64,000 bases of DNA from Cenarchaeum sp. (GCA_965242695.1 CBDESU010000001.1:320001-384000), one strand, 5' to 3'; numbered from the stretch's first letter, positions 4,411-52,055 are shown. A program made the numbers and translations. Notes: generated by a model not told the origin, from the letters alone.

Positions 4411-5630
4411 CTATGGCAGGCCGCACTGGACATTGTACGAGACGGTCTGGGCGAGGACGCCGCCCTCTGCCGCGTCGTACGGGGCCAGGTTCAGCCTGAA
4501 CCACAGCGATGCGGTGTCGCCGCCTCCGAGCCCTCGCACCACGGCCGTCCCCCCGCCGACGGACGCGTAGGCGCCCTCCATGCCATCCTCGCACGCCTCG
4601 GTCGCCGCGGCCGGAATGGACGCGTAGACGCGCGCGACAAGGGCGCTCGATGTCCTGCCCTCGCCCGTCCCGTTCGCGGGGGCCGCCAGGATCGGCGATG
4701 CGGCGCCCGGCGAGGTGCCGCCGCCGTGGCCCGCCTGCCACGTAGTCGCATCTATTCCAGCCTGCGCAAACGGCGCCGAGCCGTAGTTGATCCGCGTCTG
4801 CTCGGTGGGATACAAGCGGGCGCCGGGCGCTGCATCGCCGATGTCTAGGCTCGGCGACCCGAGCCCGACCGAGCATGTGTGGTACACGGGCGCCGGGGCG
4901 CCGCTCTCGGACTCTGCGGTGCCGAACCGGGCCAGGTGGTGCGTGTAGATGGCCATGTCCCTGCCGTCGTCCGAGTCGATCCGGCACTCGCCCGTGCCGC
5001 CGAGGTGCCGGTCGACCCTGGCAGTATCGTCCGCTGCGCATGCTGTGCCGATCGGCACGATCCGACCGCCGGGGCCGTCGTCGATGCAGACGCCCTGCCG
5101 CCTGCCTGGCCCTCGAGGGATATGCGGACGGGCATGTCGAACGCGACCCTGCCGCTGTCATCGTCGCCGATCTCCACGACGCCCCGCAGCAGGACCGCAC
5201 CCGGGCCGCCGTACAAGACCCTCCGCGCCAGAGCCGGGCGGCACTGCGCGCAGGACGAGCAGGCCGCCGGGCGGCACGGACGTTGCCTTTGCCCCGGGCG
5301 GGAGCGACACTGATGCGAACGATGTGGCTACGGCGGCGCCCTCGGGCGGGAACTGCGCGGTTCCGCCGGCGGCGCCTGCCTGGTCAAGCACGTCACGTTG
5401 ATCGTGACGCGCAACTCGTTGTCCCTGTCGGCAAGGTTGCTGTAGACCGCATCGTCGTCCGGCCCGGGACAGCCGTTGCGGCGCCGTTGCCGCCCGCGCT
5501 GATCACTGCCGGGCTGGCGCGCGGCGACGCCGGGGATCCGGCATCCGGAATATCCGAGCCGGCGGGGCTCCCGCCCGCATCCCTGATGGAGCCGCCGCCC
5601 GCCGACGGGGCATCCCGCCCTGCGCCCTGC
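4411..5630 (-). pseudogene. Frameshifted paralogous copy of the C-terminal module of the adjacent giant surface protein
   Basis: Pieces in ORFs 5393..6208 (tail), 5158..5391, 4845..5216 and 4411..5058 align consecutively to FPPEGAAV..SFASV, VVEIGD, LEGQAGG, GECRIDS and LWFRLNLAPY of the 1832-aa protein, but in different frames. No start codon or signal peptide. Confidence 0.85.
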
Positions 5631-5634
5631 GCGG

Positions 5635-8600
5635 CTACTGCGGCAGGATGCACTGGGCGCTGTACGTGATGCTCTGCGAGATCGTGCCGACCGGCACCTC
5701 GCTGCCGTACGGGGCCAGGTTCAGCCTGAACCACAGCGGCTTGACGTCCCCGCCGCCGAGGCCGCCGGCCACCGCAGTATCCGCGCCGACCGCGGCGTAG
5801 TCGCCTATCCTGCCGGACTCGCTCACCTCGGATGCGCCAGCCGGCAGGGTCGCCGAGATGCGCGCGACAAGGGCGCTCGACGCCCTGCCCTCGCTTGTGC
5901 CGGGCGCCGGGGCCGGCAGGGACGGGTATCCGCCGGAATCGGAGCCGCCGTCGGCACCGGCCCGCCACGGGGACGCCTCGATCCCGACACCTGCAAACGG
6001 CGCCGAGCCGGAGTTGATCAGCCTCTGCTCTGCCGGATCGGAGCGGCCGCCGAGCGCCGCATCGCCGATCGGCAGGCTCTGCCGCCAGAGGCTCACCGAG
6101 CACGTATAGTCCACGGGCGGCGGCATGCCGCTCTCGGACAGCACGGTGCCAAACCGCGTCAGGTGGTACGTGTAGATGACCATGTCCCCGCTCGAGTCGA
6201 TCCGGCACTCGCCCATGCCGCCGAGGTGGCGGTGGACCCTGACTGTATCGTCGGCCCCGCAGGCGTCGTCGATCGGCACCAGCGAGCCGTCCGTGCCGTC
6301 GATGTAGAACGCGCGGCCGCCGGCCTGGCCCTCGAGCTGTACGCGGACGGGCATGCTGAACGTGACGGTACTGCCCTCGTCGCCGATCTCTACGATCCTT
6401 CGCAGTGTCACGGCCGAGCCGTCGTACGCAAGGCCCTGGACGGCCGGATCCGCCGGCAGGCCGCCGTCGGACTCGGCGACGACGTGCAGGACGAGCAGGC
6501 CGTCGGGCGGCACTGACATTGCCGTCACACCGGGCGGGAACTGCACGGACGCGAACGACGTCGTCACGGCGGCGCCCTCGGGCGGGAACTGGACTGTCCC
6601 GCCGGCGGTCCCTGCGCCTGCCAGCCCCGTCACGTTGATCGTGACGCGAACCTCGTTGCCCCTGCCGGTAAGATTGGCCTGGACCGCGGCGTCGTCCGGC
6701 CCGATGACGACCGTTGCGGTGTTTCCGGTCGCGTTGTCCGCGCCGCCGCCTACGCCGCCTCCGTTGGATCCAGCGCCGCCGCCTCCGTTGGATCCAGCGC
6801 CGCCGCCTCCGTTGGATCCAGCGCCGCCACCGTCGATCACAATGCCCGATGCATGCAGCGAGTCGGGCGAGCCCGGCTCGGGCAGCATCCGGTCGGCATC
6901 GCGGCCGCTTGCATCCCGTATTGTACCGCCGTTGAGGGACAGGGCGCCGCTGTCCGCATAGTCGAGGCGGTCCGCCATGTCTCCGGACTGTACCCTGTAG
7001 AGGAACGCCAGCCTAGAGTCGCCGTCGCTGCCCTCTACGTATGCCGCGCTCCTGGCCGGCTCGGTCGAGAGCGCCAGCGTAGGCGCCCCCGTCACGTGCA
7101 CGGTTCCGCTAAAGGCCACGGTAATGTTGACGGCCGAGCCGGCGCCGTACGTGCCGCCAGCGTCCGCCGAGAATACCCTGAGGACGCTGGGCGGATCCTC
7201 CGACTGCATCGTCGTGTCTATCTCGATGTCCCTCGAGTGGCCCAGCGATCCGGCCTCGCCCGGCCCGGGCAGCATCCGGTCGGCGTCGTTGCCGGCCGCA
7301 TCCTTGATGGTTCCGCCGTTGAGGGTCAGCGCGCCGGTCCCGGTATAGTCCAGGTCGTCCGCTACATCGTCGGGAAGCACCCTGTACTCGAACACAAGCG
7401 TCCGCGAGCCGCTGCCGTAGTCGTATGCGGCCATGCCGGCGGCCGCGCCCGTATCGAGCTCGATCCGCGGCGAACCCGTCACGTGCACGGCCTCGTCAAA
7501 CAAGACCGTGACGTTGATCCTCGAGCCGATGCCGTACGCGCGGTCCGCGTTAGGCGACGAGACGGCCTCTACACTCGGGGCGGTGGTGTCGATGCGAATG
7601 CCCGCGGCCGCAAGCGACATCTCCCCTTCGATGCCGGACAGGTCCAGGTCGGCGCCGTTGCCGATTGCATCCGTCATGGTCCCGCTGTCAAGGGACAGGG
7701 CATCGGCGCCGTCGTAGTCTAGGGGGCCCGCGCCGTCGCCTACTTGCACCGTATAGTTGAAGACGAGCGTCCGCATGTCGCCCGACTGCCGCTCGTACGT
7801 GGCGGCAGCGGTCGCATCCCCGTCGAGTGCGAGGCGCAGCGACGGGGATGCCCTGTCGGAGAGCACGACGGCCTCGCCAAAGCCGACGGCGATCCTGACC
7901 GTCTCGCCAGCCCGGTACGGCGCGCCCTTTGGATCGGACTCTGCTGCGCTGATCGCGCGCGGCCCCGCGGTGTCGATCCGTATGGGCATATCGTCGTCGC
8001 CGAGCAGGCCGTCCATTCCAGGCTCGGGCAGCGTCAGGCTGGCGGGGTTGTCGGCCGCGTCCGCAATGGATCCGTCGGGGGACAGCGCCGTAGTGTTCGC
8101 ATAGTCGAGGTCGGCCGCATTGTCGCCCCCTTCCACCGTGTATACAAACGCCATGTCCATGCCGGCGCTGCCGCCCTCGTCGTACACGGCGAACCGGTCC
8201 GTCCCGTCGTCCATCCTCAGCGCGATCGACGGCGCGCCGTCCCGGGCGACGTCCACATTCTCGTCAAACGAGACCGTAATGTTGATCTTCGAGCCTGCGC
8301 CGTACGTGCCGTTCGCGTTGGGCGACGAGACTGACTCGACGCGCGGGGCGGCGGTGTCGGGCACGATGGCCCTTGCGCCGCCGAGCGAGTCTGGAGAGCC
8401 CGGCGCAGGCAGTTCGAGGTCGACTGCGTTGCCCAGCAGGTCGGTTATGGCGCCGCGCGACGCCAGGGCCCCGGCGTGCGCGTATTCCAGGCCGGCGGCA
8501 GCGGCGGGAACGGCGTCGCCGGGCATCACCGTATAGTTGAAGACGAGCGTGTCTGTTCCGTTGCCGGACAGGTAAGGCGCCGCCCTGTCCTCCCCCTCCA

Positions 8601-11133
8601 GGGACAGCAGGAGCGAGGGCGGGCTCGACGGATCCTGCAGCATGACGCGCTCGTCGAATGCGACCGTAACGTTGATCATCGTCCCGGCAGAGTACGAGCC
8701 GTTCCCAATGGGGGAGGACACGCCGGCGACCGACGCCGGCCAGAGCCTGACGAGCTGGACGGCGTCGTCGTTTTGCGCGGCGATTAGCGAGTACGCGCGG
8801 CCGCCCGCCTTGAACACGGCGAGGCCGTCGGCGCCATCGAGGGCGTCGAATCCGCCTGGATCCCCGTCCTTGGCCGATCCCTCGGCTACGGGCGTTCCGT
8901 CCGGGTTGATGCGCATCAGCTGGATGCCATCGTCGGCGGCCGACGGCGCAAGGGCGTACGTCCAGCCGCCCATCTCGAACACCGCGGCGTTTGTCGAGCC
9001 ACCAATCGAGTCGAACCCGCCGGTTCCATTGACGGCCGAGCCCGCATTGGAGAGGGTGCCGTCGGGGTGGATGCGGGCGATCTGGACGGCTTTGTCGCCG
9101 GACGCGGTCACTACGGCGTGGGTGAGGCCACCGACCTCGAACACGGTGGCGGCGCCGGCATTGCCAAGCGTGTCGAATTCAGGCGTGTCGTCCACCGCCG
9201 TGGCGTTGACCGAGAGGGTGCCGTCGGGGTGGATGCTGACGAGCTGGATGATGCTGACATGGCGATTGCTGCTGGCGCCGGGCGAGGCCGCGAGGGCCCT
9301 TGGCGGGCCGTCGGCGTCGGCGGCGTCGCCAGACTTGATCACATTGACGGCGGCTACCCCGGTCAGGTTGAACATGTCGACTCCGTCCGACGCCGAGCCG
9401 TTGCGTGACAGGGTGCCGTTCGGGAGGATGTGGACTAGCTGGAGGCCGTTGTCGCCGTTGGCGGCAACGAGGGCATAGGTGCGGTCGTACGCCTCAAACA
9501 CGGATATGCCGGCTGCCCCGCCCAGCTTGTCAAACCCGCCTCCGGGGGAGGTCGCCGAGCTGTTGAGCATGAGGGCGCCGCCGGATCCGATATCGTACAG
9601 AGAGATGCTGTTGCCGGCCGATACGATGGCGCGGGGCAGGCCGCCCATCTCGAACGTGGTGACGTCTTCGGGTAGGTGCAGCCTGACGGTGGATCCTGTC
9701 CTATCTATGCCGCCAGGCGAGAGCGTACCGTCGGGGTGGATGCGGATCGCCTGGACGCCGCCAGGGTGATCAGAGCCGGTCTTTTCGTTGCGCGCCGCCA
9801 CCACGGCGTACGCGCCGCCGCCGTCCGTTTCGATCACATCGACTTCGATGGCTCCGTCTAGGGCGTCAAATCCGCCGACGCCGTCGGCGGCCGTGCCGTT
9901 GGCCTTCAGGACTGGGATGGGCCCTCCCAGTATCCCGATCGAGTTTGAGGCGGAGAGCGATCCCCTCTCTCCCGGCACGGGCAGCGGCAGGGTGGTCATG
10001 GCGGCATTGTCTGATACCTTGGAGATCGACCCGCCCTCCAACGACAGGGCGCCAGTGCCCGCATAGTCCAGGCTGTGCGCCTCGTCGCCGGCCCGCACCG
10101 TGTACTGGAACTCTAGGTCGGCCGTCCCGTTTCCCCCCGCGTAGGAGGCGTACCGGGGCGGCTCGGTGTCGAGCATGAGGCGCGGCTCGGTGTCGAGCAC
10201 GGCCTCCTTGTTAAGGGACACCGTAATGTCGACGATGCGGCCCGTGCCGTACGTCGCATCCCCGCCCGGCGACGAGACCGACAGTACGAACAGTGCAGTG
10301 TTGTCTATCGGGATGGGGCCCGAGCGGCCGAGCGAGCCGGATGCGGACAGGCTCAGGTTGGCCGGGTTGCCCGCCATGTCCTCGACGCCGCCGCCGGATG
10401 CGGCCAGCGCCATCGTGCCGTTGTACCTCACGTCCGCCGCGCTGTCCTCGCCCCGCACCTCGTACGCGAACGTGAGCGACTTTGTGTTGTTTCCCCCTGC
10501 ATAGGTGGCGTTGCGGAACTCTTCGCCGCCCAGGCTCAGCAGCAGCGCAGGCGCGGCGCCCGAGTGCACCACTACGGTCTCGTTGAAGTTGGCCCTGAAC
10601 TCGAGGCTGTCGCCCTCGCGGGCGTAGCCCCTGTCCGGCGGCGCGACGGTGATGTTTGCGACGCGCGGCGCGACGCCGTCGACGCGTATGTCGCTCTGGT
10701 TGGAGAGCGAGCCGGCCTCTCCCATGACAGGGAGTAGGCAGTTTATGCTATTGCCGGGGCCAGCTTCGAGCACGTTGAACGTATACTTCGGACCCGTACC
10801 TGATGAGGCATGGTGGGAGATCGACCAGTACAGCGCGTACCTTGAATGGTATTCCAGGTCGTCGGACTCGTCGCCTTCCTGCACCGTGTACGTGTATGCG
10901 ATTGTCGTGCCGAAGGCCGCGCTGCTGGCGTGCTCGCCAAACCGATCCTCGTCGCCCGTCTCCATCTTGATGCGGGTATGCGTCACTGTGTGAGCCTGGT
11001 GGGAGTCCCCGTTGAGAGAGGGGATCGTGACGATGATGCCTATGGTGTCGTTGATCCCGTACAGGCCGTCGTCCGAGGTAAATCTGATCGACGATAAGGC
11101 GGGGGTGCCCGTGGTATCGGCGCACGCGGCCAC
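5635..11133 (-). CDS. Giant adhesin-like surface protein (tandem Ig-like repeats, LVIVD-like beta-propeller, conserved C-terminal module); true start probably 11353 across a frameshift
   Basis: 1832-aa ORF. Repeated ~125-aa units VxSVSSPxxNGTYGxGxxINITVxF...FxYTVxxGD...ALxLxGGTIxDAAGN. Central repeats (VQLVxIHPDGTLS). In-frame Ala/Leu signal peptide at about 11160-11280. Confidence 0.88.
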   Translation of the reverse strand: MAACADTTGTPALSSIRFTSDDGLYGINDTIGIIVTIPSLNGDSHQAHTVTHTRIKMETGDEDRFGEHASSAAFGTTIAYTYTVQEGDESDDLEYHSRYALYWSISHHASSGTGPKYTFNVLEAGPGNSINCLLPVMGEAGSLSNQSDIRVDGVAPRVANITVAPPDRGYAREGDSLEFRANFNETVVVHSGAAPALLLSLGGEEFRNATYAGGNNTKSLTFAYEVRGEDSAADVRYNGTMALAASGGGVEDMAGNPANLSLSASGSLGRSGPIPIDNTALFVLSVSSPGGDATYGTGRIVDITVSLNKEAVLDTEPRLMLDTEPPRYASYAGGNGTADLEFQYTVRAGDEAHSLDYAGTGALSLEGGSISKVSDNAAMTTLPLPVPGERGSLSASNSIGILGGPIPVLKANGTAADGVGGFDALDGAIEVDVIETDGGGAYAVVAARNEKTGSDHPGGVQAIRIHPDGTLSPGGIDRTGSTVRLHLPEDVTTFEMGGLPRAIVSAGNSISLYDIGSGGALMLNSSATSPGGGFDKLGGAAGISVFEAYDRTYALVAANGDNGLQLVHILPNGTLSRNGSASDGVDMFNLTGVAAVNVIKSGDAADADGPPRALAASPGASSNRHVSIIQLVSIHPDGTLSVNATAVDDTPEFDTLGNAGAATVFEVGGLTHAVVTASGDKAVQIARIHPDGTLSNAGSAVNGTGGFDSIGGSTNAAVFEMGGWTYALAPSAADDGIQLMRINPDGTPVAEGSAKDGDPGGFDALDGADGLAVFKAGGRAYSLIAAQNDDAVQLVRLWPASVAGVSSPIGNGSYSAGTMINVTVAFDERVMLQDPSSPPSLLLSLEGEDRAAPYLSGNGTDTLVFNYTVMPGDAVPAAAAGLEYAHAGALASRGAITDLLGNAVDLELPAPGSPDSLGGARAIVPDTAAPRVESVSSPNANGTYGAGSKINITVSFDENVDVARDGAPSIALRMDDGTDRFAVYDEGGSAGMDMAFVYTVEGGDNAADLDYANTTALSPDGSIADAADNPASLTLPEPGMDGLLGDDDMPIRIDTAGPRAISAAESDPKGAPYRAGETVRIAVGFGEAVVLSDRASPSLRLALDGDATAAATYERQSGDMRTLVFNYTVQVGDGAGPLDYDGADALSLDSGTMTDAIGNGADLDLSGIEGEMSLAAAGIRIDTTAPSVEAVSSPNADRAYGIGSRINVTVLFDEAVHVTGSPRIELDTGAAAGMAAYDYGSGSRTLVFEYRVLPDDVADDLDYTGTGALTLNGGTIKDAAGNDADRMLPGPGEAGSLGHSRDIEIDTTMQSEDPPSVLRVFSADAGGTYGAGSAVNITVAFSGTVHVTGAPTLALSTEPARSAAYVEGSDGDSRLAFLYRVQSGDMADRLDYADSGALSLNGGTIRDASGRDADRMLPEPGSPDSLHASGIVIDGGGAGSNGGGGAGSNGGGGAGSNGGGVGGGADNATGNTATVVIGPDDAAVQANLTGRGNEVRVTINVTGLAGAGTAGGTVQFPPEGAAVTTSFASVQFPPGVTAMSVPPDGLLVLHVVAESDGGLPADPAVQGLAYDGSAVTLRRIVEIGDEGSTVTFSMPVRVQLEGQAGGRAFYIDGTDGSLVPIDDACGADDTVRVHRHLGGMGECRIDSSGDMVIYTYHLTRFGTVLSESGMPPPVDYTCSVSLWRQSLPIGDAALGGRSDPAEQRLINSGSAPFAGVGIEASPWRAGADGGSDSGGYPSLPAPAPGTSEGRASSALVARISATLPAGASEVSESGRIGDYAAVGADTAVAGGLGGGDVKPLWFRLNLAPYGSEVPVGTISQSITYSAQCILPQ

Positions 11134-11282: not shown

Positions 11283-11293
11283 CCCCCCCCCCC
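11283..11293 (-). repeat. G11 homopolymer between the predicted start codon and signal peptide of the giant surface protein
   Basis: Eleven C on the + strand. G10 or G13 would fuse ATG 11353 to the 1832-aa frame. Confidence 0.8.
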
Positions 11294-11692
11294 TCTCAAG
11301 GCATGCCGTATCGATCGCCCCTGCGATGCCCCTGCAACCCGCACGTTCTGCATCTCTCCGATCGCCCGCAACTCGCAAGCGTCCGTATAAAAGAATGGCG
11401 GCGCGGGCGCGGGCGCGGGTGAGGTGCCGGCCGGACAGTCGCCGGGCGCAGGGCGCACGGGCCTGGCGCCGCATCGATGCGCCGCTGATCGGGGCGGCGG
11501 CTGCCTAGGCGCCGCGGCGCATGCGCGATCGGCCCGCCTCCGAGCCGAGTCGCGCCGTGGATGCCCCTGCATGCGGCGCGGGAGTGTGGTGGGCCGGCCC
11601 GTTCGCCCTGCGCGGCTGCGCGATCGCCCACAGGACGGCGCAGCGCGGGCGCAGGACGCGCCGCGCCCAGGCCCTGGCCTTGACAGCCCTTC

Positions 11693-14275
11693 TCACGCCC
11701 TTCCCTTTTCCCCTTTGGCCCCGCCGACCTCGGCCCCGTCAGCCGGCCACGGGCGGCAGAGCGACTCGATGACCTGCGCCGGCGTGAGAAGGCGCAGCGC
11801 CTGCCCACGGCCCGGAGGCCTGCCGGCGCGGCCCGCGGCCGCCTCTAGCGCAGGCGGGTCGGCTATCGATATACGGTACGACCCGTGGCCGACTCCTGCG
11901 CCGGCGAGCGTCTCGCCCACAACGGACGCGTCCCTCTCGCCAAACGCGACAAACCATACGGACATGCCGGCAGCGGCGCCCTTTTCGTAGTTGGCGATCA
12001 CCTGGTCGCGGTGCTTTGACGGCGATGCCTCTACCTCGACGGCGAGCACGTCGTCGGACCACGCGTCGGGATCGGCGGGCCGGCCGCCGGGCATTGCCAT
12101 TTTTGGCGGCTCGTACGGGGGCGGAGGGGGCTCGCGGCCGCCGCCCGCCCTGGCGGATTCGGCCCCGCCCTCCCCGGCACCCTCCGCCGCGGCCGGCTCG
12201 GCCGCAGCGGCCGCCGCGGCCGCGCGCAGCGGCGCCGCCTTTCGCCTCCCGGCCAGCCGGGCCGCGGCCTCTGTTGCGCGGCGCACGGCGGCCCTGCGGG
12301 CAGCGGCCTCGCGCGCAGTCGATGCGCCTGCCGCCGGCCGAAACGAGTGCACTACAATGTCCGGCCGCGTGCGCGCCGAGTCGCCGAGGTCCGGGACGGC
12401 ATAGTGGTGGTGCGCCCTCATCGCCGCGCATATCGACGAGATGGCGGCCCTATGCAGCCCGCCGCCGGCCCCGCGGCCAGAGAATGCGGACGAGTACAGC
12501 GACCTTACCGCCAGCGCAGTCTCGCTGTACATCTGTACCGTGCTGTCGAGCCTAGAGCCTACCGCGTATTCCGTCCGCGCGGATGCGTACCGCTCGTGGC
12601 CGGCAAGCGAGTCGGCAAGGGCCGATGCGGCGGCCCGCTCGTCCGTGCGGGCAAACGCAGAGCAGGCGGCCGCCGCAAGCGACGGGCCGGCGACCTCGCG
12701 CCCGCCTGCGGCATGCAGGACGCTGAGCAGAAAGTACTGGAGGGGCGGGAGGCGCGGCGAGGCCGCCGCGGCCGCGCCGGCGGCCGCCCTGCCGGCCCCG
12801 CGGGCGGCGCCGAACGAGCCGGCGGCCCGCAGCGGCGCCGGCATTCCGTGCGCCTCTAGGCTGAGGCGCGCCGTCTCCCTCCACCTTGATGCCACCTCCA
12901 GGTGGCGCGTCATCCCTACTCCGGACACCTGCCGCGAGCCGTGCGAGTAGGCGGCGAACCTGTGGCGGCCGAGCCTGCCGAGCTCGGCCTCGCCGAGCGG
13001 CATGCTCCTTGCAAGGACGGAGGCGGTCCGGCGGTCGCACCGGAACATCGCGATGCACCGGAACAGGTCGTCGAGCTCGCCGGCGAGGCTGCCCCCGAGC
13101 ACCCCGACGGACTGCGTCGCCACGGTCGCCTTCATGCCGTACTTGCGCACGCCGTTGAGCAGGTCGCGCACCACGTCGGGCGCGAACATGTGCACCTCGT
13201 CGATGTACACGTTGAACGGCGTGCGGCGGGCCTCGCCGAGGTCGAACCGTATGCGGTTCTCTAGCCCGAACATGCCGATGATCAGGGTCCCCATGAACTC
13301 TACGATGTCTGGCGTCGATGCCGACCCGAGGTCGACGACGACGAACCTGCCGCGCTCGATGCACTCGCGTATGCTGACCGACGACCTGGCAGACGAGAAC
13401 ATGGCCGCCACGGGCGGCGTGCTTATGATCTTGTCGAACTTGTTGTACACGGCGCCGGCCGCCTCGGAGGAGAACCTCGGGTACACGGACGCCCAAAAGT
13501 CGCGCACGGACGGGTCGGAGCACGAGCGGAGCGCCTCGGCGCGCCGCTCCTCGTCGTACAGGACGGAGACGAGGTCCAGGAAGCGGAACTCGCCTGGCGT
13601 CGACATGACGAGGCCCATCAGGTTGCGCAGTATGGCCTCTAGGCGGTGGCCCCAGCCGCTCGCAAAGTACTGCCTGAGGCTCGATACGGCGCCGGCCGCG
13701 CGTATGTACCGCTCGTGCTCGGTGCGGCTCTCGAGGGGGTTTATGCAGACCGTACGGCCGAACTGGTACATCGAGGCGAGCGATATGTACACGACGCGCC
13801 CGCGCATCGACGGCGGCACGAGCGAGAGGACCTCGCGCGCAAAGTCGCGGTGCGGGTCGACGAGCAAAAACCCCGTCCCGCGCGCAATGTCCTGCATTAT
13901 GAGGAGGCGCATGATCGACGTCTTGCCGGACCCGACCTCGCCGAACACGGCGATGTTCTGGCGGTCGCTCTCGGGTATGGCGAACAGCTCGGGGCGCCCC
14001 TCCGTTCCGCCGCCGGGAGCCTCTACGTAGCCGAGCGCCGTCGTCTCGCGGCTTGTGCGCGATGCGTCGAATGCGGGCGCGGCATCGGGGGGTGCGGGCC
14101 GCGGCCCGTCGTTTTCCGCGGCGGGCCGTCCCCGGGGCGGGGCGGCCGGGCCGCGGCCGGGGCCGCTCCCGGCCGGGCGGCGCCGAATGGCGGGCAGAAG
14201 GGCCCAGCCCGCGCCGCAGGCGGCGCCCGCGGCCGCCGCCGCGGCAAGAATACCGGCGGCATCGAGCGGCAGCAT
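11693..14275 (-). CDS. VirD4/TraD/HerA-family (DUF87-like) ATPase with N-terminal membrane anchor and C-terminal wHTH + PD-(D/E)xK-like region
   Basis: Walker A GEVGSGKT, LLVDPHRD, Walker B VYIDEVHMF, RKYG..ATQ. C-terminal RPDIVV...LAVEVE. Confidence 0.85.
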   Translation of the reverse strand: MLPLDAAGILAAAAAAGAACGAGWALLPAIRRRPAGSGPGRGPAAPPRGRPAAENDGPRPAPPDAAPAFDASRTSRETTALGYVEAPGGGTEGRPELFAIPESDRQNIAVFGEVGSGKTSIMRLLIMQDIARGTGFLLVDPHRDFAREVLSLVPPSMRGRVVYISLASMYQFGRTVCINPLESRTEHERYIRAAGAVSSLRQYFASGWGHRLEAILRNLMGLVMSTPGEFRFLDLVSVLYDEERRAEALRSCSDPSVRDFWASVYPRFSSEAAGAVYNKFDKIISTPPVAAMFSSARSSVSIRECIERGRFVVVDLGSASTPDIVEFMGTLIIGMFGLENRIRFDLGEARRTPFNVYIDEVHMFAPDVVRDLLNGVRKYGMKATVATQSVGVLGGSLAGELDDLFRCIAMFRCDRRTASVLARSMPLGEAELGRLGRHRFAAYSHGSRQVSGVGMTRHLEVASRWRETARLSLEAHGMPAPLRAAGSFGAARGAGRAAAGAAAAASPRLPPLQYFLLSVLHAAGGREVAGPSLAAAACSAFARTDERAAASALADSLAGHERYASARTEYAVGSRLDSTVQMYSETALAVRSLYSSAFSGRGAGGGLHRAAISSICAAMRAHHHYAVPDLGDSARTRPDIVVHSFRPAAGASTAREAAARRAAVRRATEAAARLAGRRKAAPLRAAAAAAAAEPAAAEGAGEGGAESARAGGGREPPPPPYEPPKMAMPGGRPADPDAWSDDVLAVEVEASPSKHRDQVIANYEKGAAAGMSVWFVAFGERDASVVGETLAGAGVGHGSYRISIADPPALEAAAGRAGRPPGRGQALRLLTPAQVIESLCRPWPADGAEVGGAKGEKGRA

Positions 14276-14284
14276 CCGGATCCC

Positions 14285-21159: not shown

Positions 21160-21253
21160 ATGGGGGTGCACAGGGGTGCGATCTTCTGTATCGCTGGCTG
21201 TTCGACATGGCCGCGGGTCGCAGCGTGCGGGCGGTGCGCCGCCGCATGCGCCG

Positions 21254-23257: not shown

Positions 23258-23390
23258 GCCGCGGCGCCGCACGGCCGGCAGTCGGGCGGACGGGGATCCC
23301 TCCAGGCTAGGCATGGCCTGCGGAGCAGGAGACGTGGGGGCGCTTGGCTCGGTACGCCGCCCGGGGGCGCCGCCCGTCGCACTGCCAAAC

Positions 23391-23762: not shown

Positions 23763-24074
23763 GGCGCGCGCCCGCGGCGCCTGCTACTTAATCTATCCGG
23801 CGCGTCAACACATGCTCGCGGCTCTGCCGGCGTGCGCCCACTGCCGCATCTGGCCAGCGCGCCCGCGGCGTGCGCCCCTGTCGCCGCAGGGGTAGGCTCT
23901 CAAAATCCGCAGCCTGCAGGTTGTCCCGTCTAATGTGCCGCAGGGCGCGCAGACTGCCGCGACATGGCCTCGCCGCCGGATCCCGCGGCACGGGTGCATG
24001 CGAGCGGCGGGATGGCCCTGCACTGTGCGGTGGGTATTCAACACTGTTATAGCCACGTGCTTTCTTGCCCCGGC

Positions 24075-26225
24075 GTGCAGTCGCTCGGAATCGCAATGTT
24101 GCTGGCCGCCGCTATCATGGCCGCGATCGCCGCGGTGACGGGCGGTGTGGCGCATGCGGCTCACGACGACCCGACTATGCCCCATTGGCTACAGCCGGGC
24201 ATGTTCGCCGTGGCGGACACCAACAACCACCGCATCCAGGTGTTCCACCCGGACGGCACGTTCGCGTTCGCGTTCGGGTCGTACGGGGGCGGCCCGGGGG
24301 AGTTTGACTCCCCCGTCGACGTCACCATCGGCCCCGACGGCCGCATCGCCGTGGCCGATGTCAACAACCACCGCATCCAGGTGTTCCACCCGGACGGCAC
24401 GTTCGCGTTCGCGTTCGGGTCGTACGGGGGCGGCCCGGGGGAGTTTGCCGCACCCGTCGGCGTCGCCATCGGCCCCGACGGCCGCATCGCCGTGGCCGAC
24501 GCCGACCATCGTCGCATCCGGGTGTTCCACCCGGACGGCACGTTCGCGTTCGCGTTCGGGTCGTACGGAGTGGGCCAGAGACAGTTCATCTCCCCCGTCG
24601 ACGTCGCCATCGGCCCCGACGGCCGCATCGCCGTGGCAGACCCCGGTAAATTCGATGCCCAGGTATTCCATCCCAATGGCACGTTCGCGTTCGCAATCTA
24701 CCGTGGAGGGGGCCCCGAGCCATACCTGCCGGATGGCATAGCGTTTGGCCCCGACGGCCGCATTGCCCTGACCGCCTACCTCCATGGGTACATTAGCTTG
24801 TTCCACCCCAACGGCACCGAGCGCCCGACCGCGTATGGCGAAATAGGGACTTGGTACCCGTTTGGCGACGTAGTCGACGTCGCCATCGGCCCCGACGGTC
24901 GCACGGCCCTAGTCGATACCCGCAACCACGCCATTGCGGTATCCCATCCCAACGGCACGTTCGCGTTCGCGTTCGGGTCGTACGGGGGCGGCCCGGGGGA
25001 GTTTGACTCCCCCTCGGGCGTTGCAGTCAGGCACCGCGCGCCCCCCGCTGTGGCCCCTGCGCCGGTAATTGTTGTCGAGCCGGGCGGCTCACCAGGCGGG
25101 CCTTACAACTTTACCGCCGTCGGGGATGCGGCGAACCTGGCCATCAATGTAGTCGGGCTTGCGGGTCAGGGTGCCCAGCCGCCAGGCGGCCGGGGCGAGA
25201 TCACCGTGACGTTCCCTCCGTCCGAAACCGATGTGGTCACGTCGTTCGCATCGGTCTCTTTCCCGCCCGGCGTGACGGCCACGCACGTGCCGGCTGACGG
25301 CCTGCTCGTCCTTCGAACGTCGGACAAGGTTCCGGCGGATGCGCAGGTGCAGGGCGGCCTTGCGTACGACGGGTCCGGCCGCGTCGCGTTGCAGAGGGTC
25401 GTCGAGGTCGGCGGCGGGCCGTCCCGCATCATATTCGACCAGCCTGTTCGGATACTGCTGGAGGGGCAGGGCGGCGGCAGGGCATTCTACATAGACGGCG
25501 CGGCCGGACCCGGCGGCGGTTGCGTCGAGTTCGCCGGGCAGGCCGACGGCAGGGCATCCTGCATCGATGGCACGATTGGCAAGATCGTGCCCATTGATGG
25601 GGCTTGCGCTGCAGACGACGCGGGCAGGGTGCACCGGCAGATGGGCGGCAGCGGCGAGTGCCAAATGGACTCCGCGGGCGGCGGCAAGGTCATCTACACG
25701 TACCACCTCACCCTGTTCGGCACCGCGTTGCCCGAGAATGCGGTCCCTCCGCCCGCGACATACACGTGTGCGGCGGGCATCGGTGCGGTGGACCTGGACA
25801 TGCGCGCGGCCCCGGGCGAGTATTCGCCGGCCGTGCGGCAGGCGCTGATCAACGCGGGATCATTGCCGTTTGCGCATGTCGAGATTGCAGCGTCCCCGTG
25901 GCGCGCCGGCCCCGTCGCCGGCACACCGCAGGGCGCGACTCCCGCGTCACTCCCAGCTCTCATCGACGGTGAGGGCGAGGGCCGGGCGCCGGACCTCTCG
26001 AGATCGAGCGCTACCGCATCGCTGCCGCCCGGTGCAACCGAAGTGGGAGAGCAGGGTCCCGGCGGCGAATACGCGGCAATTGGCAACGGGGCGACGGTGG
26101 CACGCGGGCTAGGCGGTGGAGATGTCGCGCCACTGTGGTTCAGGCTAAACCTTACACCGTACGGAGAAATACGCGGAATCAACCTCGTCCAGCATATCAC
26201 GTACCAGGCCCTGTGCATGCAGTAG
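24075..26225 (+). CDS. Secreted NHL-repeat beta-propeller protein with the shared C-terminal module
   Basis: Signal peptide ..AHA. 47-aa repeats AVADxxNHRIQVFHPDGTFAFAFGSYGGGPGEF (141-bp DNA repeats). C-terminus homologous to that of the 1832-aa protein. Confidence 0.9.
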   Translation: MQSLGIAMLLAAAIMAAIAAVTGGVAHAAHDDPTMPHWLQPGMFAVADTNNHRIQVFHPDGTFAFAFGSYGGGPGEFDSPVDVTIGPDGRIAVADVNNHRIQVFHPDGTFAFAFGSYGGGPGEFAAPVGVAIGPDGRIAVADADHRRIRVFHPDGTFAFAFGSYGVGQRQFISPVDVAIGPDGRIAVADPGKFDAQVFHPNGTFAFAIYRGGGPEPYLPDGIAFGPDGRIALTAYLHGYISLFHPNGTERPTAYGEIGTWYPFGDVVDVAIGPDGRTALVDTRNHAIAVSHPNGTFAFAFGSYGGGPGEFDSPSGVAVRHRAPPAVAPAPVIVVEPGGSPGGPYNFTAVGDAANLAINVVGLAGQGAQPPGGRGEITVTFPPSETDVVTSFASVSFPPGVTATHVPADGLLVLRTSDKVPADAQVQGGLAYDGSGRVALQRVVEVGGGPSRIIFDQPVRILLEGQGGGRAFYIDGAAGPGGGCVEFAGQADGRASCIDGTIGKIVPIDGACAADDAGRVHRQMGGSGECQMDSAGGGKVIYTYHLTLFGTALPENAVPPPATYTCAAGIGAVDLDMRAAPGEYSPAVRQALINAGSLPFAHVEIAASPWRAGPVAGTPQGATPASLPALIDGEGEGRAPDLSRSSATASLPPGATEVGEQGPGGEYAAIGNGATVARGLGGGDVAPLWFRLNLTPYGEIRGINLVQHITYQALCMQ

Positions 26226-29032: not shown

Positions 29033-29155
29033 GAACCCGCGCCTGCCGCGCCGAATATAACTGACCTGGTTGTGCGGCCTGGCAGGATGCGCGGGGCTGG
29101 TCCGCGGCAAGGCGCCGCTGCGCCGTCACGGGGGCGCCCGCTGCGGGCTTGGGCC

Positions 29156-43794: not shown

Positions 43795-43863
43795 CCGCGC
43801 CGCCCCGCAAGTTCGATGCATGCCCCCACTAGTCTTATTTGCCGCCGCTGTCCCCGCCGCGCC

Positions 43864-46619: not shown

Positions 46620-49600
46620 TTGCAGTTTCCTAGGGGAGGGCCTAGAATGCCGCGCCGCGATCGCCCGATCGTGAGGGCAGGGCCCATTGCAGCAGGGCTG
46701 CTGGCCGTGGCACTGGTCGCGGCTGCGGCCGCATGGGCGCCGGGCGATGCGTACGCGCAGGAGTGCCGCGCGGACCAGGGAGACGACTGCGTGTACCACG
46801 TCACGCGCACGATAGACGTCGGCGACATCATCCCCATCATAGTCAAGGTGGACGGCGAGGGCAACGTCTATGTCGCCAACAGGCCCCATCTGGGCACGGA
46901 AGACCAGAACCATTCCCACCTGCGCATATACGACGGGAGTACGGGCGACAAGCTCGGGGATGATGTTGTCCTCGGTGGGGGGATGAACTCGCGCATATTG
47001 GACATTGAGGTAGCAGGTAGCACGATATACGTCGCGCACATGTGGGGCATCGGGGACAGCTCCTTGGGCTGGGACAACAAGACTTGGAACGGGGACGGGC
47101 TGATGAACCTGACGGCGATCGCGGCTGGCACGGGCGAGATGCTCGGCACGATCGCCCTGATGCACGGGGACGGCGCAGGGCAGGACGTCACAAGGGGCAC
47201 CATATCGGACTTGGCCGTCGACCCGGACAGGAAGAGGGCGTACATCTCGACCGGGAGCATGGGTCCCGTGCTTGCAGTCGACATATCTGACCCCGCTGCG
47301 ATGAGACTAATGTACACGACAGCCGGAGGTGCCAGTGCCGGCGAATGGAGCCCCTACGATGTAGCCGCCCCCGTATCGGCGCTTGCCGTCGACAACGGCA
47401 CGGGCCTGGTGTACGCTGCAGCCCGCGTAGGCGACAGGGACGACAGTATGGGACACTCGTGGGGGATCGCGACCCTGAACTTTACGGATGCCGGCGGTGC
47501 CTTTACGCCAAACTACACACGTGCAGACTTCCTGAACATGTCGTCAAACCCAGCACCGGACCCGATGGGTGAATGCAGGAGCGACTACAACCGGAACCCG
47601 TGCAGGGGAGATGTCTTGGTCGACTCGCTGCAGCTATACGGGGACGGCGACAAACTGTTCGCCCTGTACCGAAACCACACGGTGTGGGCATTCGAACTTG
47701 ACGACATGACGAACTATCCAGATACAGCTCCGACCGAGGTGAATGTGACGCTAGATGATCCGCAGGCGGGCAGCTACGAGGACGGCTACATGCTGGGCAG
47801 CTATGCCCACAAGCAGATCAGCGACATACTGCTGGACGGCCAGCGTGGACTTCTCTACGCATCGCTGTACGACTTTGCAAACCCGCGCGTCGTCGTGATC
47901 AACGCCGACACGCACGTCAGGGTCGGCGATGCCTCGGCGAGCAGCCAGATCGACAACATGGGGCTGGATGCGCGGAATGGGGCCGTGTACGCCCTGCCGC
48001 AGTGGACGCCGAACGCGTACGTGATAGAGGCGACCAATAAACACCTACTGCAAAAGATGATCGACAACGCCTCGGATGGCGATGTGCTGAAAATACCGGC
48101 TGACACGTACGACGATGCGATCCTTAGCGTGAACAAGTCCCTGACGCTCACGGCGAACGTGTCGGGCACCGTGATCTTTAACGGAAGCTCGCGCATCGAG
48201 ATCGAGTCTCACGATGTCGCCATAAGCGGCCTGATCTTCCGGGACACGAAATGCCTGCCCGGCCTGGCAGCCTCGCTCATCGAGATCCGGACGCACGGCA
48301 ACGACTTTACGCGTACCAACGTCATCGTGAAGGACAGCATGTTCAGCAACACATGCCACGCGGCCATCCAGCAGGAGGGAGTCGGCCGCCTAACCGGCGT
48401 CATGATACAGAACAACACGTTCGTAAACATAGGCCTAAACATGCGAGACGGCAAGACTGAGCCGATCGACACGGGCGGCGAGAACGAGTTCCAACTCATG
48501 CACGGGGCGATCGGACTGGCGCACCACCCGTCCCAGATGCCAGTAAGCGGCACCATTGCAGGCAACACCATAGAAAACACTAGCGCGGCCGGCATACGCG
48601 TGTTCAACGCAGACGGCATGACCATAATGAACAACAACATCACGGGCACCCCCGCAAGCGGCATCGGGCTGGCGCACGGGCCGAGCAACACGGTCGTCAA
48701 GTACAACATACTCAATAACACAAACAACAAGCCGGACCTAGACTATCTGGACGGCATCACGGGCAGCGGCGAGCCTGGCTACTACAAGTACATCGACTTT
48801 ACGTACCCCAACCCGTACGCCTACCTGGGCATGCAGAAGCTCGTGGATCGCGAGCCCTATCCCATGCCGGCGCCCGATGCGGCCATCAATGTATGGGCCA
48901 ACGCGAAGAACGTCACCGTCGCCAACAACACAATACGGGACAGCGACGGTGCATTCACGGTCTGTACGGGCGTGTGCGCGTTCGAGAGCGACGGGCCGGT
49001 TCGAAACAACGAGCGCAACGTGCCGGCCAACGGCATGCCGATCACAAACGAGGTACACTTCATCAACAACACGATCTACCCATACAACAGCTCGGACAAC
49101 AACGGCTTACTCGTGGTCAGCCATGCGCTCGGTCATCTTGATGCCAGAAACAACACCTTCCTTGACGCCCGGAACAACACCTTCCATGACAGTGAAAATG
49201 ACACCCAAGTGGTGTCAGGGCGGGTAAAGACCGACCACCATGATGACCCGCTCAATGCGACGTTCACTGCAGCGGCATTCGTCTCGCCCAACAGGATTCT
49301 CATAATATATGACGCCCCGCTGGGCCCGATGAAGGGCCACGAGGATGATGCCGTGTACGGCCGCATTATGGGGTCCGGCCTAGACGAGATGCCAATGCAG
49401 GTGTCGGGCCTCGGCACTGCAATGCACACGATCGAGTTTGGCGGGGACGGCGTGGGCGAGCGGCAGAACGGCACGATCGAGCTCAACGTCGATATCGAGA
49501 GCATCGACTCGGATGGCAACCACCATCTCTTTTCCAACGACTCGATTCCACTGAGGGCCTACGGACCGAACGTGGATCTGGTCTCTGCCATGTTCATGTC

Positions 49601-52055
49601 GCCGGGCACGGCGCGCATTCTGTACGACGAGCCCCTTGACGTGCCCGCGTCAGACTATACCAACCTGCGCGTGGGGGAGTCTAACGCGACGGCCACCTAC
49701 ATCACGGGAGTGGACGGCTCGGGCACGGTGGCACATGTACTGCGGTTCGATACGGGGTACGATGTCGTCGTCGCAACGGCCGGCTACGTTGACATCGCGC
49801 CGCAGGTGTTGCCGGACGGGCGCCTGTTTGCCGGAGCCGACGACCTAGAAATCATCAACGGGACCGCGGCGCCGGCCGAAGCGCCGCCGGGATCGCCCCC
49901 GATCGTGATCGAGTCTGACACCTTTGTGACCTCTATCCGCGGCACGGACGGCGCGGCGATCCGCGTGCCTGGCGGCATGATACCGGCCGCGATCCCCGCC
50001 GTAGGATTTACCGTGAACACGGGTGCGGCCACGGTTACGTTTGCGCCTGGTACGAGCATCACCGACAGGGGCACCGACACGACGTACGGCGGGGTGGTCA
50101 ACGTCACGGTGGCGGCGGCGGATCGGCAGACCGCGGCAATGAATGGGACTAGTGCCGCCGGCGCAAACGCAAGCCGCATCGGCACGGTAGTCGAGGTGGG
50201 AGACCCGGCTAGTGATCTCGCATTGAGTAGCCCCGCGCGCATAGTGCTCAAGGCGCAGGCGGCGCCGGCCGACGTGTACCACATGAACAGCACGGGTGGC
50301 GTCACGAAGATCGGCGAGTGCGACAATGCCGCAAACCCGACGGGGTGGCTGGCGGACAACCGCGGCATGCAGTTCTGCTACACGGTGCAGGGCGACGGAG
50401 ATACTGGGGACTATACGATCTACACATACCGCCTGAGCGCATTCTTCGTGGTCGGCGTAGATCGGGTCGACCCGAACATGGCCCCCGCAGTCTTGAACGT
50501 CACTTCGACTACTGCCGATGACACGTACACGCCGGGCGCAATGATCAACATTGCCGTCATGTTTACCGAGGACGTCACCGTCACGGGCTCGCCCCTGCTG
50601 GAGCTGGATGTAGGCGAGCGGAATCGGAACGCCACGTACGTTCCGACAGCCGCTTCGCCGACCGTAATGTTCAGGTACCTGGTCCAGCCGGGCGATGCTT
50701 CGCCGGACTTGAACTATACCGGCACGGATGCGTTGTCGCTAAATGGCTCGACGATAGTAGACGCAGACGGCAACAACGCCAACCTGACGCTGCCTATACC
50801 GGGAGATGCCGGCTCGCTCTCTGCCTCTAGCAACATCGTGATCGACACGCCCGCCCACCCAATGCAGAAAATGACGGTTACCATAGTCGCGCCTGAGACG
50901 CCTACTCCGCCACCACCTGCACCGCCGGTCGTCGTCTCGACTCCAGGGCCGTCTACAGGGTTCGCGCCGTTCTTCGGCGGCGGAGGTGGCGGCGGCGGAG
51001 GTGGCGGCGGCGGAGGTGGCGGCGGCGGAGGCATCCTGCAGAGCGGCGGCAGTCAGGTGATCCTGTACGCCGCTACATGGGATTGTGACGAGGGGACGAT
51101 CCGGATAACGACAAACGCTGGGGTCAGTCCTGACGTTACCATCCTGTCGTCCGACGGCACGATTAGGGCGCAAATGGCAGAAGGGCCGCATCCGACGGGA
51201 CGCACCGTCTACGAGGCGCCGCTGCCGGAGGACTCAATACTGTCGATCAGGGCCACGATCATAGAGGGTAGGGCAACATCGACTGCATCAGAGATGGTGC
51301 GGACGGAAGGGCAGTGCACCGGCGAGGCCGTATTCAGGGCGTACGGAGCGGAGCCTGCCGCCGCGCCGCCTGTTGCGGAGACGGAGCGGCCCGCGCCGTC
51401 CGCCTCTGCTGACGAGCCTCCCGCGGCCGAGCAGCCGGCAGAGGAGGCGCCTTCGACCGCCGTAGGCGACGAGCCGCCCGCGGCCGAGCAGCCTGACGAC
51501 ATGCCTGCGGATCAGCAGCAGGTTGACGTGCCTCCGCCGCCGCCCGAGCCGGATGTGGAGCAGCCAGATGCGCCAGCCGACGAGCAGCCTGCGACCACGA
51601 CGCCTGCGACCCCCGCCGATACGGATGCCGTCCCCGTCGAGGATGACGACGACGGCGGCTGCCTAATTGCGACGGCCGCGTACGGGACAGAGATCGCCCC
51701 GCAGGTGCAGCACCTCCGCGAGGTTCGCGACGGCACGCTCCTGACGACAGAGTCTGGCAGGGCGTTCATGTCCGCGTTCGGCACCGCATACTATGCATTC
51801 TCGCCGCAAGTGGCGGACCTAGAGCGCGCCCATCCGGCGCTCCGGCAGGCGGTAGCGGCCCTAGTAGCGCCGATGCTACTTGCCCTGCAGGTCGTCGATG
51901 CGGCCGAGCCGGGCTCCGAGCAGAGCGTCATTGCATACGGAGCGCTGGCCATTGCGCTCGTTGCGGGCATGTACGTGGCGGCGCCGGCAGCCGGCGCGTG
52001 GTACGCCGTCCGCCTTGGCCGCGGCCGGGCAAGCGGCAAGAGTCGCGGCGACTGA
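46620..52055 (+). CDS. Giant surface protein (beta-propeller, right-handed beta-helix, Ig-like, CFI-box-CTERM + TM)
   Basis: 1811 aa. Signal peptide, Asn-rich IxNNTI repeats, one Ig unit like those of the 1832-aa protein, poly-Gly and Pro/Glu linker, GGCLIATAAYGTEIAPQVQ, terminal TM and basic tail. Confidence 0.9.
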   Translation: MQFPRGGPRMPRRDRPIVRAGPIAAGLLAVALVAAAAAWAPGDAYAQECRADQGDDCVYHVTRTIDVGDIIPIIVKVDGEGNVYVANRPHLGTEDQNHSHLRIYDGSTGDKLGDDVVLGGGMNSRILDIEVAGSTIYVAHMWGIGDSSLGWDNKTWNGDGLMNLTAIAAGTGEMLGTIALMHGDGAGQDVTRGTISDLAVDPDRKRAYISTGSMGPVLAVDISDPAAMRLMYTTAGGASAGEWSPYDVAAPVSALAVDNGTGLVYAAARVGDRDDSMGHSWGIATLNFTDAGGAFTPNYTRADFLNMSSNPAPDPMGECRSDYNRNPCRGDVLVDSLQLYGDGDKLFALYRNHTVWAFELDDMTNYPDTAPTEVNVTLDDPQAGSYEDGYMLGSYAHKQISDILLDGQRGLLYASLYDFANPRVVVINADTHVRVGDASASSQIDNMGLDARNGAVYALPQWTPNAYVIEATNKHLLQKMIDNASDGDVLKIPADTYDDAILSVNKSLTLTANVSGTVIFNGSSRIEIESHDVAISGLIFRDTKCLPGLAASLIEIRTHGNDFTRTNVIVKDSMFSNTCHAAIQQEGVGRLTGVMIQNNTFVNIGLNMRDGKTEPIDTGGENEFQLMHGAIGLAHHPSQMPVSGTIAGNTIENTSAAGIRVFNADGMTIMNNNITGTPASGIGLAHGPSNTVVKYNILNNTNNKPDLDYLDGITGSGEPGYYKYIDFTYPNPYAYLGMQKLVDREPYPMPAPDAAINVWANAKNVTVANNTIRDSDGAFTVCTGVCAFESDGPVRNNERNVPANGMPITNEVHFINNTIYPYNSSDNNGLLVVSHALGHLDARNNTFLDARNNTFHDSENDTQVVSGRVKTDHHDDPLNATFTAAAFVSPNRILIIYDAPLGPMKGHEDDAVYGRIMGSGLDEMPMQVSGLGTAMHTIEFGGDGVGERQNGTIELNVDIESIDSDGNHHLFSNDSIPLRAYGPNVDLVSAMFMSPGTARILYDEPLDVPASDYTNLRVGESNATATYITGVDGSGTVAHVLRFDTGYDVVVATAGYVDIAPQVLPDGRLFAGADDLEIINGTAAPAEAPPGSPPIVIESDTFVTSIRGTDGAAIRVPGGMIPAAIPAVGFTVNTGAATVTFAPGTSITDRGTDTTYGGVVNVTVAAADRQTAAMNGTSAAGANASRIGTVVEVGDPASDLALSSPARIVLKAQAAPADVYHMNSTGGVTKIGECDNAANPTGWLADNRGMQFCYTVQGDGDTGDYTIYTYRLSAFFVVGVDRVDPNMAPAVLNVTSTTADDTYTPGAMINIAVMFTEDVTVTGSPLLELDVGERNRNATYVPTAASPTVMFRYLVQPGDASPDLNYTGTDALSLNGSTIVDADGNNANLTLPIPGDAGSLSASSNIVIDTPAHPMQKMTVTIVAPETPTPPPPAPPVVVSTPGPSTGFAPFFGGGGGGGGGGGGGGGGGGGILQSGGSQVILYAATWDCDEGTIRITTNAGVSPDVTILSSDGTIRAQMAEGPHPTGRTVYEAPLPEDSILSIRATIIEGRATSTASEMVRTEGQCTGEAVFRAYGAEPAAAPPVAETERPAPSASADEPPAAEQPAEEAPSTAVGDEPPAAEQPDDMPADQQQVDVPPPPPEPDVEQPDAPADEQPATTTPATPADTDAVPVEDDDDGGCLIATAAYGTEIAPQVQHLREVRDGTLLTTESGRAFMSAFGTAYYAFSPQVADLERAHPALRQAVAALVAPMLLALQVVDAAEPGSEQSVIAYGALAIALVAGMYVAAPAAGAWYAVRLGRGRASGKSRGD

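Follow-up and report, generated by a model that had tools for sequence, protein, structure and literature searches.

The DNA studied here (the window) is a stretch of 64,000 nucleotides from Cenarchaeum sp. (GCA_965242695.1 CBDESU010000001.1:320001-384000), and our subject is a protein module which occurs in it four times, in otherwise different surface protein genes. A preliminary description had reported the same motif at four places, and all four copies were found there. It had further described a module of about 200 residues, followed by a Cys-terminated C-terminal domain of about 140 residues. A conserved C-terminal part does exist, but the unit consists of two separable domains: domain A, about 190 residues long and terminating 6-8 residues past the motif Y-T-Y-H-L-T-x-F, and domain B, comprising about 155-165 residues, stapled by cysteines and located at the extreme C-terminus. 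Furthermore, B is not common to all copies, as the giant beta-helix protein contains only A, followed by about 530 residues and a CFI-box-CTERM motif with hydrophobic segments. The absence of a transmembrane anchor, also part of the earlier account, holds for the B-type tail, which has no predicted transmembrane segment. The genes, domains and motifs are as follows (E values for A and B from hidden Markov models, HMM).

4411..5502, minus strand: headless, frameshifted A+B pseudogene, triad H-L-A at 4930-4938
4921-4950, minus strand: IYTHHLARFG, in the broken, headless copy
5635..11133, minus strand: giant surface protein gene, 1832 residues from a GTG at 11133; the open frame extends to 11295
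5638..6126, minus strand: domain B copy 1, C-terminal, Ig-like (HMM E 5e-55)
6127..6720, minus strand: domain A copy 1, predicted ZU5/GAIN-B-like beta-sandwich (HMM E 2e-82); sequence used for modelling
6148-6177, minus strand: IYTYHLTRFG, residue 1653 of the 1832-residue Big_5/propeller protein
6157..6165, minus strand: H-L-T triad of copy 1, H1657 L1658 T1659 in the protein and H186 L187 T188 in the model; predicted scissile bond between L and T
23964..26225, plus strand: NHL-repeat surface protein, 753 residues; NHL propeller (PF01436, E 5e-26), then A, then B
25098..25730, plus strand: domain A copy 2, H-L-T triad at 25704-25712 (motif search, identity, HMM)
25692-25721, plus strand: IYTYHLTLFG, residue 577 of the 753-residue NHL protein
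25743..26222, plus strand: domain B copy 2 (HMM E 1e-49)
46620..52055, plus strand: beta-helix giant, 1811 residues (Pfam/NCBIfam scans, sequence reading)
49890..50459, plus strand: domain A copy 3, R-L-S subclass, triad at 50430-50438 (HMM E 3e-41)
50418-50447, plus strand: IYTYRLSAFF, residue 1267 of the 1811-residue beta-helix protein
51660..51875, plus strand: CFI-box-CTERM, residues 1681-1752, then hydrophobic segments (NF041770, 71.6 bits, above the curated cut-off of 40)

Compared with the first copy, that of the Big_5 protein, the module is 58% identical in the NHL protein, 29% in the beta-helix protein and 56% in the broken copy. An HMM built from the source genome's own copies, and applied in an iterated census of all its open frames, recognised the intact window copies with E values of 2e-82 (Big_5 giant), 2e-42 and 4e-26 (NHL protein, in two pieces) and 3e-41 (beta-helix giant), and the three pieces of the broken copy with 2e-13, 3e-13 and 9e-22. 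The similarity of these sequences reflects homology rather than chance.

In the giant encoded at 5635..11133, Big_5/Ig-like repeats (PF13205, E 1e-9) and propeller-like repeats are followed by A and then B. Its domain B has one cysteine near the start and one near the C-terminus, and the model loop 258-288 is of low confidence. The beta-helix giant starts with a signal peptide and a propeller-like region, continues with the beta-helix head, A and an Ig-like domain and ends with Gly-rich and acidic linkers and CFI-box-CTERM. Domain A of the NHL protein contains an insertion of about 25 residues bearing two extra cysteines. In the pseudogene A is split over three frames (5158-5502, 4845-5327 and 4411-5157) and followed by B, without any head. 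Signal-peptide-like N-termini were seen by eye in the NHL protein, the beta-helix giant and the Big_5 giant. No family covering A or B was found in Pfam and NCBIfam scans of the three whole window proteins.

Directly upstream of domain A in the Big_5 giant, a 24-bp perfect tandem repeat (6753-6828, minus strand, 3.2 copies) encodes a G-A-G-S-N-G-G-G linker, and the stalk of the beta-helix giant contains a run of more than 20 Gly. Such repeat and Gly linkers could vary in length through slippage. The contig joints between the pseudogene and the module of the giant involve short unitigs that span repeated sequence.

Predicted fold and position of the triad

Two AlphaFold2 models were calculated, one of A and B together from an alignment of 43 copies from the source genome (predicted local distance difference test, pLDDT, 88.8; predicted TM-score, pTM, 0.84) and one of A alone from 51 copies, eight of them from other genera (pLDDT 94.5, pTM 0.90). 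The likeness to GAIN and ZU5 domains that had been proposed from the sequence was recovered when the model of A alone was compared with the PDB using Foldseek: every one of the 18 leading entries in the list (ranks 1-19, with one entry counted only once) was a ZU5 or GAIN domain, with probabilities of 0.60-1.00. They came from ankyrin, UNC5b, ZO-1, CD97 and BAI3, with probabilities of 0.94-1.00 for the ZU5 domains of ankyrin and UNC5b and for CD97 and BAI3. The top match was 4d8o (E 8e-5, probability 1.00), and the TM-score per target reached up to 0.59. In an independent and unbiased VIA-align scan of 48,161 representative chains, 12 of the best 15 were ZU5, GAIN or FIIND domains and the other three axonemal proteins. 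The VIA-align values, in the order reported, were:

ankyrin ZU5 3f59_A: 9.1, 3.4, 131
ankyrin 6m3q_E: 8.9
ankyrin 3ud1_A: 8.5
CD97 GAIN 9mqr_A: 8.0, 4.1, 140
CD97 8ikj: 7.3
BAI3: 6.9
Gpr126: 6.8
UNC5b: 6.0
CELSR1: 6.0
CARD8 FIIND: 6.0
GPR97: 5.9
latrophilin-3: 5.3
GPR110: 5.2
GPR56: 5.0
NLRP1 FIIND: 4.6, 4.2
Nup98: 3.5

In the Protein Atlas the nearest named cluster to A was ZU5, at only 0.78, and is regarded as a lead only. Judged from the predicted structures, the assignment of domain A to the beta-sandwiches of the ZU5/GAIN-subdomain-B type appears very probable. As a candidate for the chaperone-usher pilin/TasA-like fold (Ig-like, with donor-strand complementation), domain B has a Foldseek match to TasA (8aur, probability 0.99), which is generic and lies in a range common for Ig-like folds. 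Protein Atlas clusters near B (viral clusters at 0.92, nearest named cluster Peptidase_M73 at 0.75) are likewise leads only.

It had been expected that H-L-T lies at a turn before the last strand. DSSP agrees with this in both models, where strands 179-187 and 189-195 are the last two and T188 is the sole non-strand residue between them. The equivalent positions in known domains were read from the first and last aligned residues. With CD97 the alignment ends are model 197 = 540 and 199 = 542, and this constant offset pairs T188 with S531, the residue whose mutation to Ala (S531A) blocks GPS cleavage. For BAI2 the end at model 197 = 921 places T188 opposite S912 of H910-L911-S912. The BAI3 alignments end at model 197 = 866 and 195 = 864, which puts L187 on L856, a residue reported to lie 'at the cleavage site', and T188 on S857; BAI3 has Arg at the position of the His (R-L-S). 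The cleaved N-terminal fragment of GPR56 ends at model 187 = L382, matching the known cleavage H381-L382/T383, and that of NLRP1 at model 187 = F1212, matching cleavage between F1212 and S1213. The chains of Gpr126, GPR97, latrophilin-3 and GPR110 likewise end at model 187. Because the alignment ends are constant and the cleaved N-terminal fragments end at model 187, H186-L187-T188 can be equated in the model with P2, P1 and P1' of the cleavage site of this superfamily. Domain A contains a single conserved Cys pair, C153 and C172.

Conservation and distribution of the module

The source genome comprises 3.89 Mb in two contigs. Both the rRNA operon and amoA are archaeal, and the organism is therefore an ammonia-oxidising archaeon. 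Parts of the window were found in sequencing runs labelled sponge metagenome; among the listed runs matching the window (contigs searched) there was no RNA run. We counted the module in the whole genome and catalogued its N-terminal partners, as had been proposed in the preliminary description, and obtained 49 A ends with diverse heads. The 45 matches to B lie in 44 open frames, and 63 open frames contain A and/or B. Together these frames amount to 426 kb or 11% of the genome (3.9 Mb). They are composed as follows.

A and C-terminal B: 29 open frames
C-terminal B without A: 13 open frames
A, then the CFI-box-CTERM motif and hydrophobic segments 400-530 residues later: 11 frames, including the beta-helix giant of the window
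A with neither of the two C-terminal parts: 6 frames
fragments: 4 frames

The heads vary (Big_5, NHL, beta-helix, He_PIG, cupredoxin, CopC, EPTP, ANF_receptor), in accordance with the earlier view of unrelated surface-protein heads carried by a conserved part. Since the heads are diverse and A is followed by B or CFI-box-CTERM, A has a variable head on its one side and either of two conserved C-terminal parts on the other. We infer that B is a cell anchor. Both anchors, B and CFI-box-CTERM, have so far been characterised by nobody.

The triads of the 49 A ends are HLT (33), RLS (8), HLS (3), HFT (2), RLG (1) and HLA (1, the pseudogene), with 1 unparsed. According to the preliminary description two window copies had lost the nucleophile or the His. 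This is correct for the H-L-A of the pseudogene and the R-L-S of the beta-helix giant as far as the residues are concerned, but the latter is no sign of decay. The reading of R-L-S as a product of decay was considered and rejected: it marks a conserved subclass to which 8 of the 49 A ends belong and whose triad is that of BAI3.

Among 1.84 billion proteins searched, 1878 matched at E <= 1e-3, from which the 150 best representatives of 50%-identity clusters were taken. These best 150 contain 125 A ends with the triads HLT (94), HMT (5), HFT (4), HLS (1), RLS (4), HLA (3), LLS (2), HLR (1) and HLM (1), 10 being unparsed, so that H-[LMF]-[ST] is present in 104 of 125. A second sample covered related genomes, with 60 places from the top of the match list and eight earlier loci giving 68 A ends from 36 genomes; left out were the source (G000), G004 as a close relative of it, G093 (unpublished), one copy interrupted by a stop and places sampled before. 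Here HFT prevails (38), followed by HFS (7), HAT (4), GLS (4), HLS (3), HLT (2), HMT (2), RLS (2) and HWT (1), besides single cases of ALS, DLS, SAS, GLG and NLD. At about 20-30% identity, H-x-[ST] is thus retained in 57 of the 68 ends and Ser or Thr at the nucleophile position in 66. Outside the source genus the family motif is W-T-x-H-F-T-x-F, which is the H-F-S pattern also known from ZU5 and MAIN domains (the latter introduced below).

Of 151 genomes sampled from the same family, 46 matched the A profile, and these belong to 14 of 27 genera (without the unpublished G093, 45 of 150 genomes matched). In a phylum-wide sample it matched 19 of 251 genomes, all from this family (G000 and 18 of 34 others), with no match in the 216 genomes of 41 other families. 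Copy numbers are mostly 1-4 per genome; in this tally, in which at most 21 were scored per genome, higher counts were obtained for G078 (20), G010 (14), G001 (10) and G055 (10). With the A+B profile there were 53 matches in G004 and 46 in G002, the latter nearly all to domain B. An in-frame TAG inside domain B of G002 was considered and rejected, being a genuine stop right after the terminal Cys which the alignment had overrun.

In other genera, the smaller genomes (about 1.4-1.8 Mb; e.g. locus L073 of G098) usually have one match to domain A. Loci of this type show short serial repeats before A, with contigs often ending inside the repeats, and after A a Ser/Gly-rich linker and about 450 residues of further domains which are not B.

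Searches for homologous proteins gave 89 and 90 hits, of which only one was named, a partial beta-helix protein labelled 'bacterium' (E 7e-7, 26% query coverage), and no Pfam family covering A or B appeared in them. A contig search with a single protein yielded 327 pattern matches, none of which was confirmed by tblastn.

Known self-cleaving domains and the proposed function of domain A

Zhang et al. (2012, PMC3482391) place ZU5, GPS and Nup98 in one superfamily and predict self-processing ZU5 domains in large bacterial surface proteins. Brogan & Rudner report GAIN-B-like 'MAIN' (Microbial Autoproteolysis INducing) domains from bacteria and archaea in a preprint of May 2026 (bioRxiv 10.64898/2026.05.12.724683). 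As described there, H-F-S is cleaved between F and S in vitro and in vivo, as confirmed by Edman degradation, the S-to-A variant stays uncleaved, the fragments remain associated, and the proteins are ordered signal peptide, head, MAIN and anchor. The idea of microbial GAIN-like autoproteolysis is thereby already published. Thaumarchaeota or Nitroso- taxa are not mentioned in the main text of the preprint.

By its model, domain A corresponds in archaea to the MAIN domains of microbes, and the window module belongs to the ZU5/GAIN-B/MAIN kind as a sequence-divergent archaeal representative. Common to both are a GAIN-B-like beta-sandwich lacking the helical subdomain, a triad of His, a hydrophobic residue and Ser/Thr at the turn preceding the last strand, and the sequence of signal peptide, large adhesive or enzymatic head, domain and surface anchor; MAIN domains are reported from bacteria and archaea, and relatives of the window family in other genera carry H-F-T/S like the H-F-S of MAIN. 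They differ in the anchors, which are B or CFI-box-CTERM here and a sortase signal, cell-wall-binding or SLH domains there, in the dominance of H-L-T and in the 49 A ends within one 3.9-Mb genome. The MAIN set was, according to the preprint, compiled by PSI-BLAST from B. subtilis YfkN; the window family was compared with it by fold, triad and architecture.

With the GAIN domains carried by adhesion G-protein-coupled receptors and polycystins, as described by Arac et al. (2012, PMC3321182), domain A shares H-L-T/S at the kink of the last two strands, the place next to a membrane anchor and the existence of an R-L-S variant, as in BAI3. It differs in having neither the helical subdomain A nor C-x-C before the triad, nor the seven-transmembrane/tethered-agonist context, nor a Pfam GPS match. 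ZU5 and FIIND domains (ankyrin, UNC5, PIDD, NLRP1, CARD8) and Nup98 are, following PMC3482391, of similar size (about 150-190 residues), their autoproteolytic members cut after the hydrophobic residue of an H-F-S-type triad, and prokaryotic surface-protein versions are predicted to process themselves; domain A, in contrast, lacks a Pfam ZU5 match, is extracellular and archaeal, and precedes an anchor rather than UPA and a death-fold domain. SEA/SEAL domains also cleave themselves within a beta-sheet, keep their fragments associated until pulled apart and lie near the anchor of large surface proteins, but have another fold and a G-S-V-V-V-type motif; no SEA domain was among the structural matches listed. 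Nothing found in our literature searches describes the archaeal family treated here, domain B or the expansion. As far as searched, the two anchors (B and CFI-box-CTERM), the scale (49 A ends, 11% of the genome) and the natural series of triad variants are new.

From the predicted fold and the matching position of the triad it seems likely that the H-L-T copies cleave themselves, and we likewise favour the interpretation of domain A as a self-cleaving release domain between a variable head and a conserved surface anchor. After secretion and folding, H186 would deprotonate T188, which would attack the carbonyl of L187 where the chain kinks between the two final strands; an N-to-O acyl shift and hydrolysis of the ester would follow. 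The two resulting chains would be joined only through the last beta-strand, still inserted in the sandwich, and the piece retained by the cell would consist of this strand together with B, or with the stalk and CFI-box-CTERM. Force or unfolding could then pull the head away. As the predicted fold is GAIN/ZU5-like and the cutting motif is found at the matching spot, the heads of dozens of giant surface proteins are probably releasable from the cell; cleavage, the non-covalent tether and release are all inferred. The R-L-S subclass and the His-less copies of one relative (G001, see below) may cleave poorly or never.

Alternatively, domain A might be a non-cleaving, ZU5-like structural or spacer domain in proteins that remain single chains, the YTYHLTxF strand owing its conservation to its place as the sandwich core. 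Several results weigh against self-cleavage and in part favour this alternative. The ZU5 domains of ankyrin are the best structural matches and are not known to cleave. An intact or near-intact triad is no guarantee either, since BAI2 (H-L-S) is called apparently cleavage-deficient and the crystal as well as the HEK293-expressed protein of BAI3 (R-L-S) were uncleaved. The R-L-S subclass is conserved without the His, and in G001, a member of the same genus, all nine examined copies (L057, L094-L097, L100, L102, L111 and L112) lack it (GLS, RLS, ALS, DLS, NLD) while eight retain the Ser, which we read from the sequences as a lineage-wide change of the presumed catalytic base in a domain that persists without it. 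The model of A has two short helices only and no helical GAIN subdomain A, and the triad is preceded by I-Y-T-Y and not by C-x-C. At E <= 10 the Pfam models of ZU5 (PF00791) and GPS (PF01825) had no match in the whole genome, a Pfam scan of 43 module copies at the same threshold gave nothing relevant and no ZU5, and a profile search of PDB sequences gave no hit. Finally, the equivalence of the sites comes from alignment ends, not from a residue-by-residue alignment, and it covers sequence position, not the His rotamer, the P1 pocket or the strain of the peptide bond. However, a buried strand needs no polar His and Thr/Ser exactly at P2 and P1', and these are the residues kept in distant copies (Ser/Thr in 66 and His in 57 of 68) while flanking residues vary. 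Moreover, the P1' residue alone breaks the strand, bacterial MAIN domains with this triad were nearly all cleaved when tested (10.64898/2026.05.12.724683), and A is always proximal to the anchor, as a release module would be. We therefore regard a purely structural role as possible, albeit rather unlikely.

It might also be that A and B together are mainly a tag for secretion, sorting or assembly, with B read by an export or attachment machinery (as the C-terminal domain of the type IX secretion system) or forming a pilin-like polymer, A being only the adaptor of B and any processing being the work of another protease. B indeed closes the C-terminus of 42 open frames, 13 of which lack A, and the pTM of 0.84 for the joint model means that A and B are predicted to pack together. 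On the other hand, the structural matches of B are within the range common for Ig-like folds, and no candidate machinery turned up, though no search for one was made. A also occurs without B ahead of CFI-box-CTERM in 11 frames, and a domain that precedes a different anchor in the absence of B has a role of its own. A mere tag function thus appears very improbable.

If domain A does cleave, an ammonia-oxidising archaeon spends about 11% of its DNA on surface proteins whose heads are held by one beta-strand, and the 'mechanical fuse' of GAIN, ZU5 and MAIN domains extends to archaeal host-associated cells and two anchors. The natural variants (H-L-T, H-F-T, R-L-S and His-less) represent a test series for the requirements of the triad.

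Poly-G tracts and genomic setting

Half of the family frames with 800 or more residues (28 of 56) have coding-strand poly-G tracts of 9-22 nucleotides no further than 250 nucleotides from the 5' end of the open frame; among other frames this long the number is 11 of 270. Many family genes have two such tracts about 100 nucleotides apart. The Big_5 giant of the window is preceded by the following tract.

11283..11293, minus strand: poly-G tract of 11 nucleotides (G in the coding strand), separating an upstream ATG (11351-11353) from the giant gene's open frame

As assembled, these 11 G break the frame ahead of the signal-peptide-like stretch, and the upstream ATG reads M-Q-N-V-R-V...R-G-G-G. 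In a metagenomic relative with 93% identity the equivalent place is read through in frame, and in contigs of two runs from one study a minor part of the depth (28 of 905 and 21 of 70) shows a tract lacking one base. These data fit slipped-strand phase variation and make the poly-G tracts candidate phase-variation switches; homopolymer sequencing error is a possible cause of the differences in length. If truly variable, the tracts would make these genes a clear archaeal example of surface genes under phase variation.

A more far-reaching reading, which we consider quite unlikely in its entirety, would unite these observations. About 50 releasable surface proteins would form a contingency repertoire, its genes individually turned on and off by slippage in poly-G tracts that directly follow the start codons and its proteins cleaved in A, with the B fragment locked by donor-strand complementation. 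The C-terminal fragment would here consist of the new N-terminal beta-strand and a pilin/TasA-like, Cys-stapled B and would lock into the S-layer or another B. If true, this would be an archaeal system of anchoring and shedding without a described counterpart, at the interface of sponge and symbiont.

The G+C content of the window is about 68%. Its four module-bearing genes form no operon; a DNA methylase, defence-like ATPases and helicases, a transposase and housekeeping genes intervene. The defence-like genes are interspersed with the surface-protein genes at 11693-14275, 20023-23650 and 27002-29110 and comprise a HerA-like ATPase (DUF87), a C5 cytosine DNA methylase adjoining an HATPase_c_3 protein and a Schlafen-group-3-like helicase. 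Within a stretch of lower G+C content (0.57 at 36-40 kb) there is a DDE_3 transposase (35631-36974). Directly downstream of the headless A+B pseudogene and beside an AAA_14/DUF4143 ATPase gene (2625-4106), there is a 33-bp tandem repeat (4148-4308, 4.9 copies, 98% matches) that is open in several frames.

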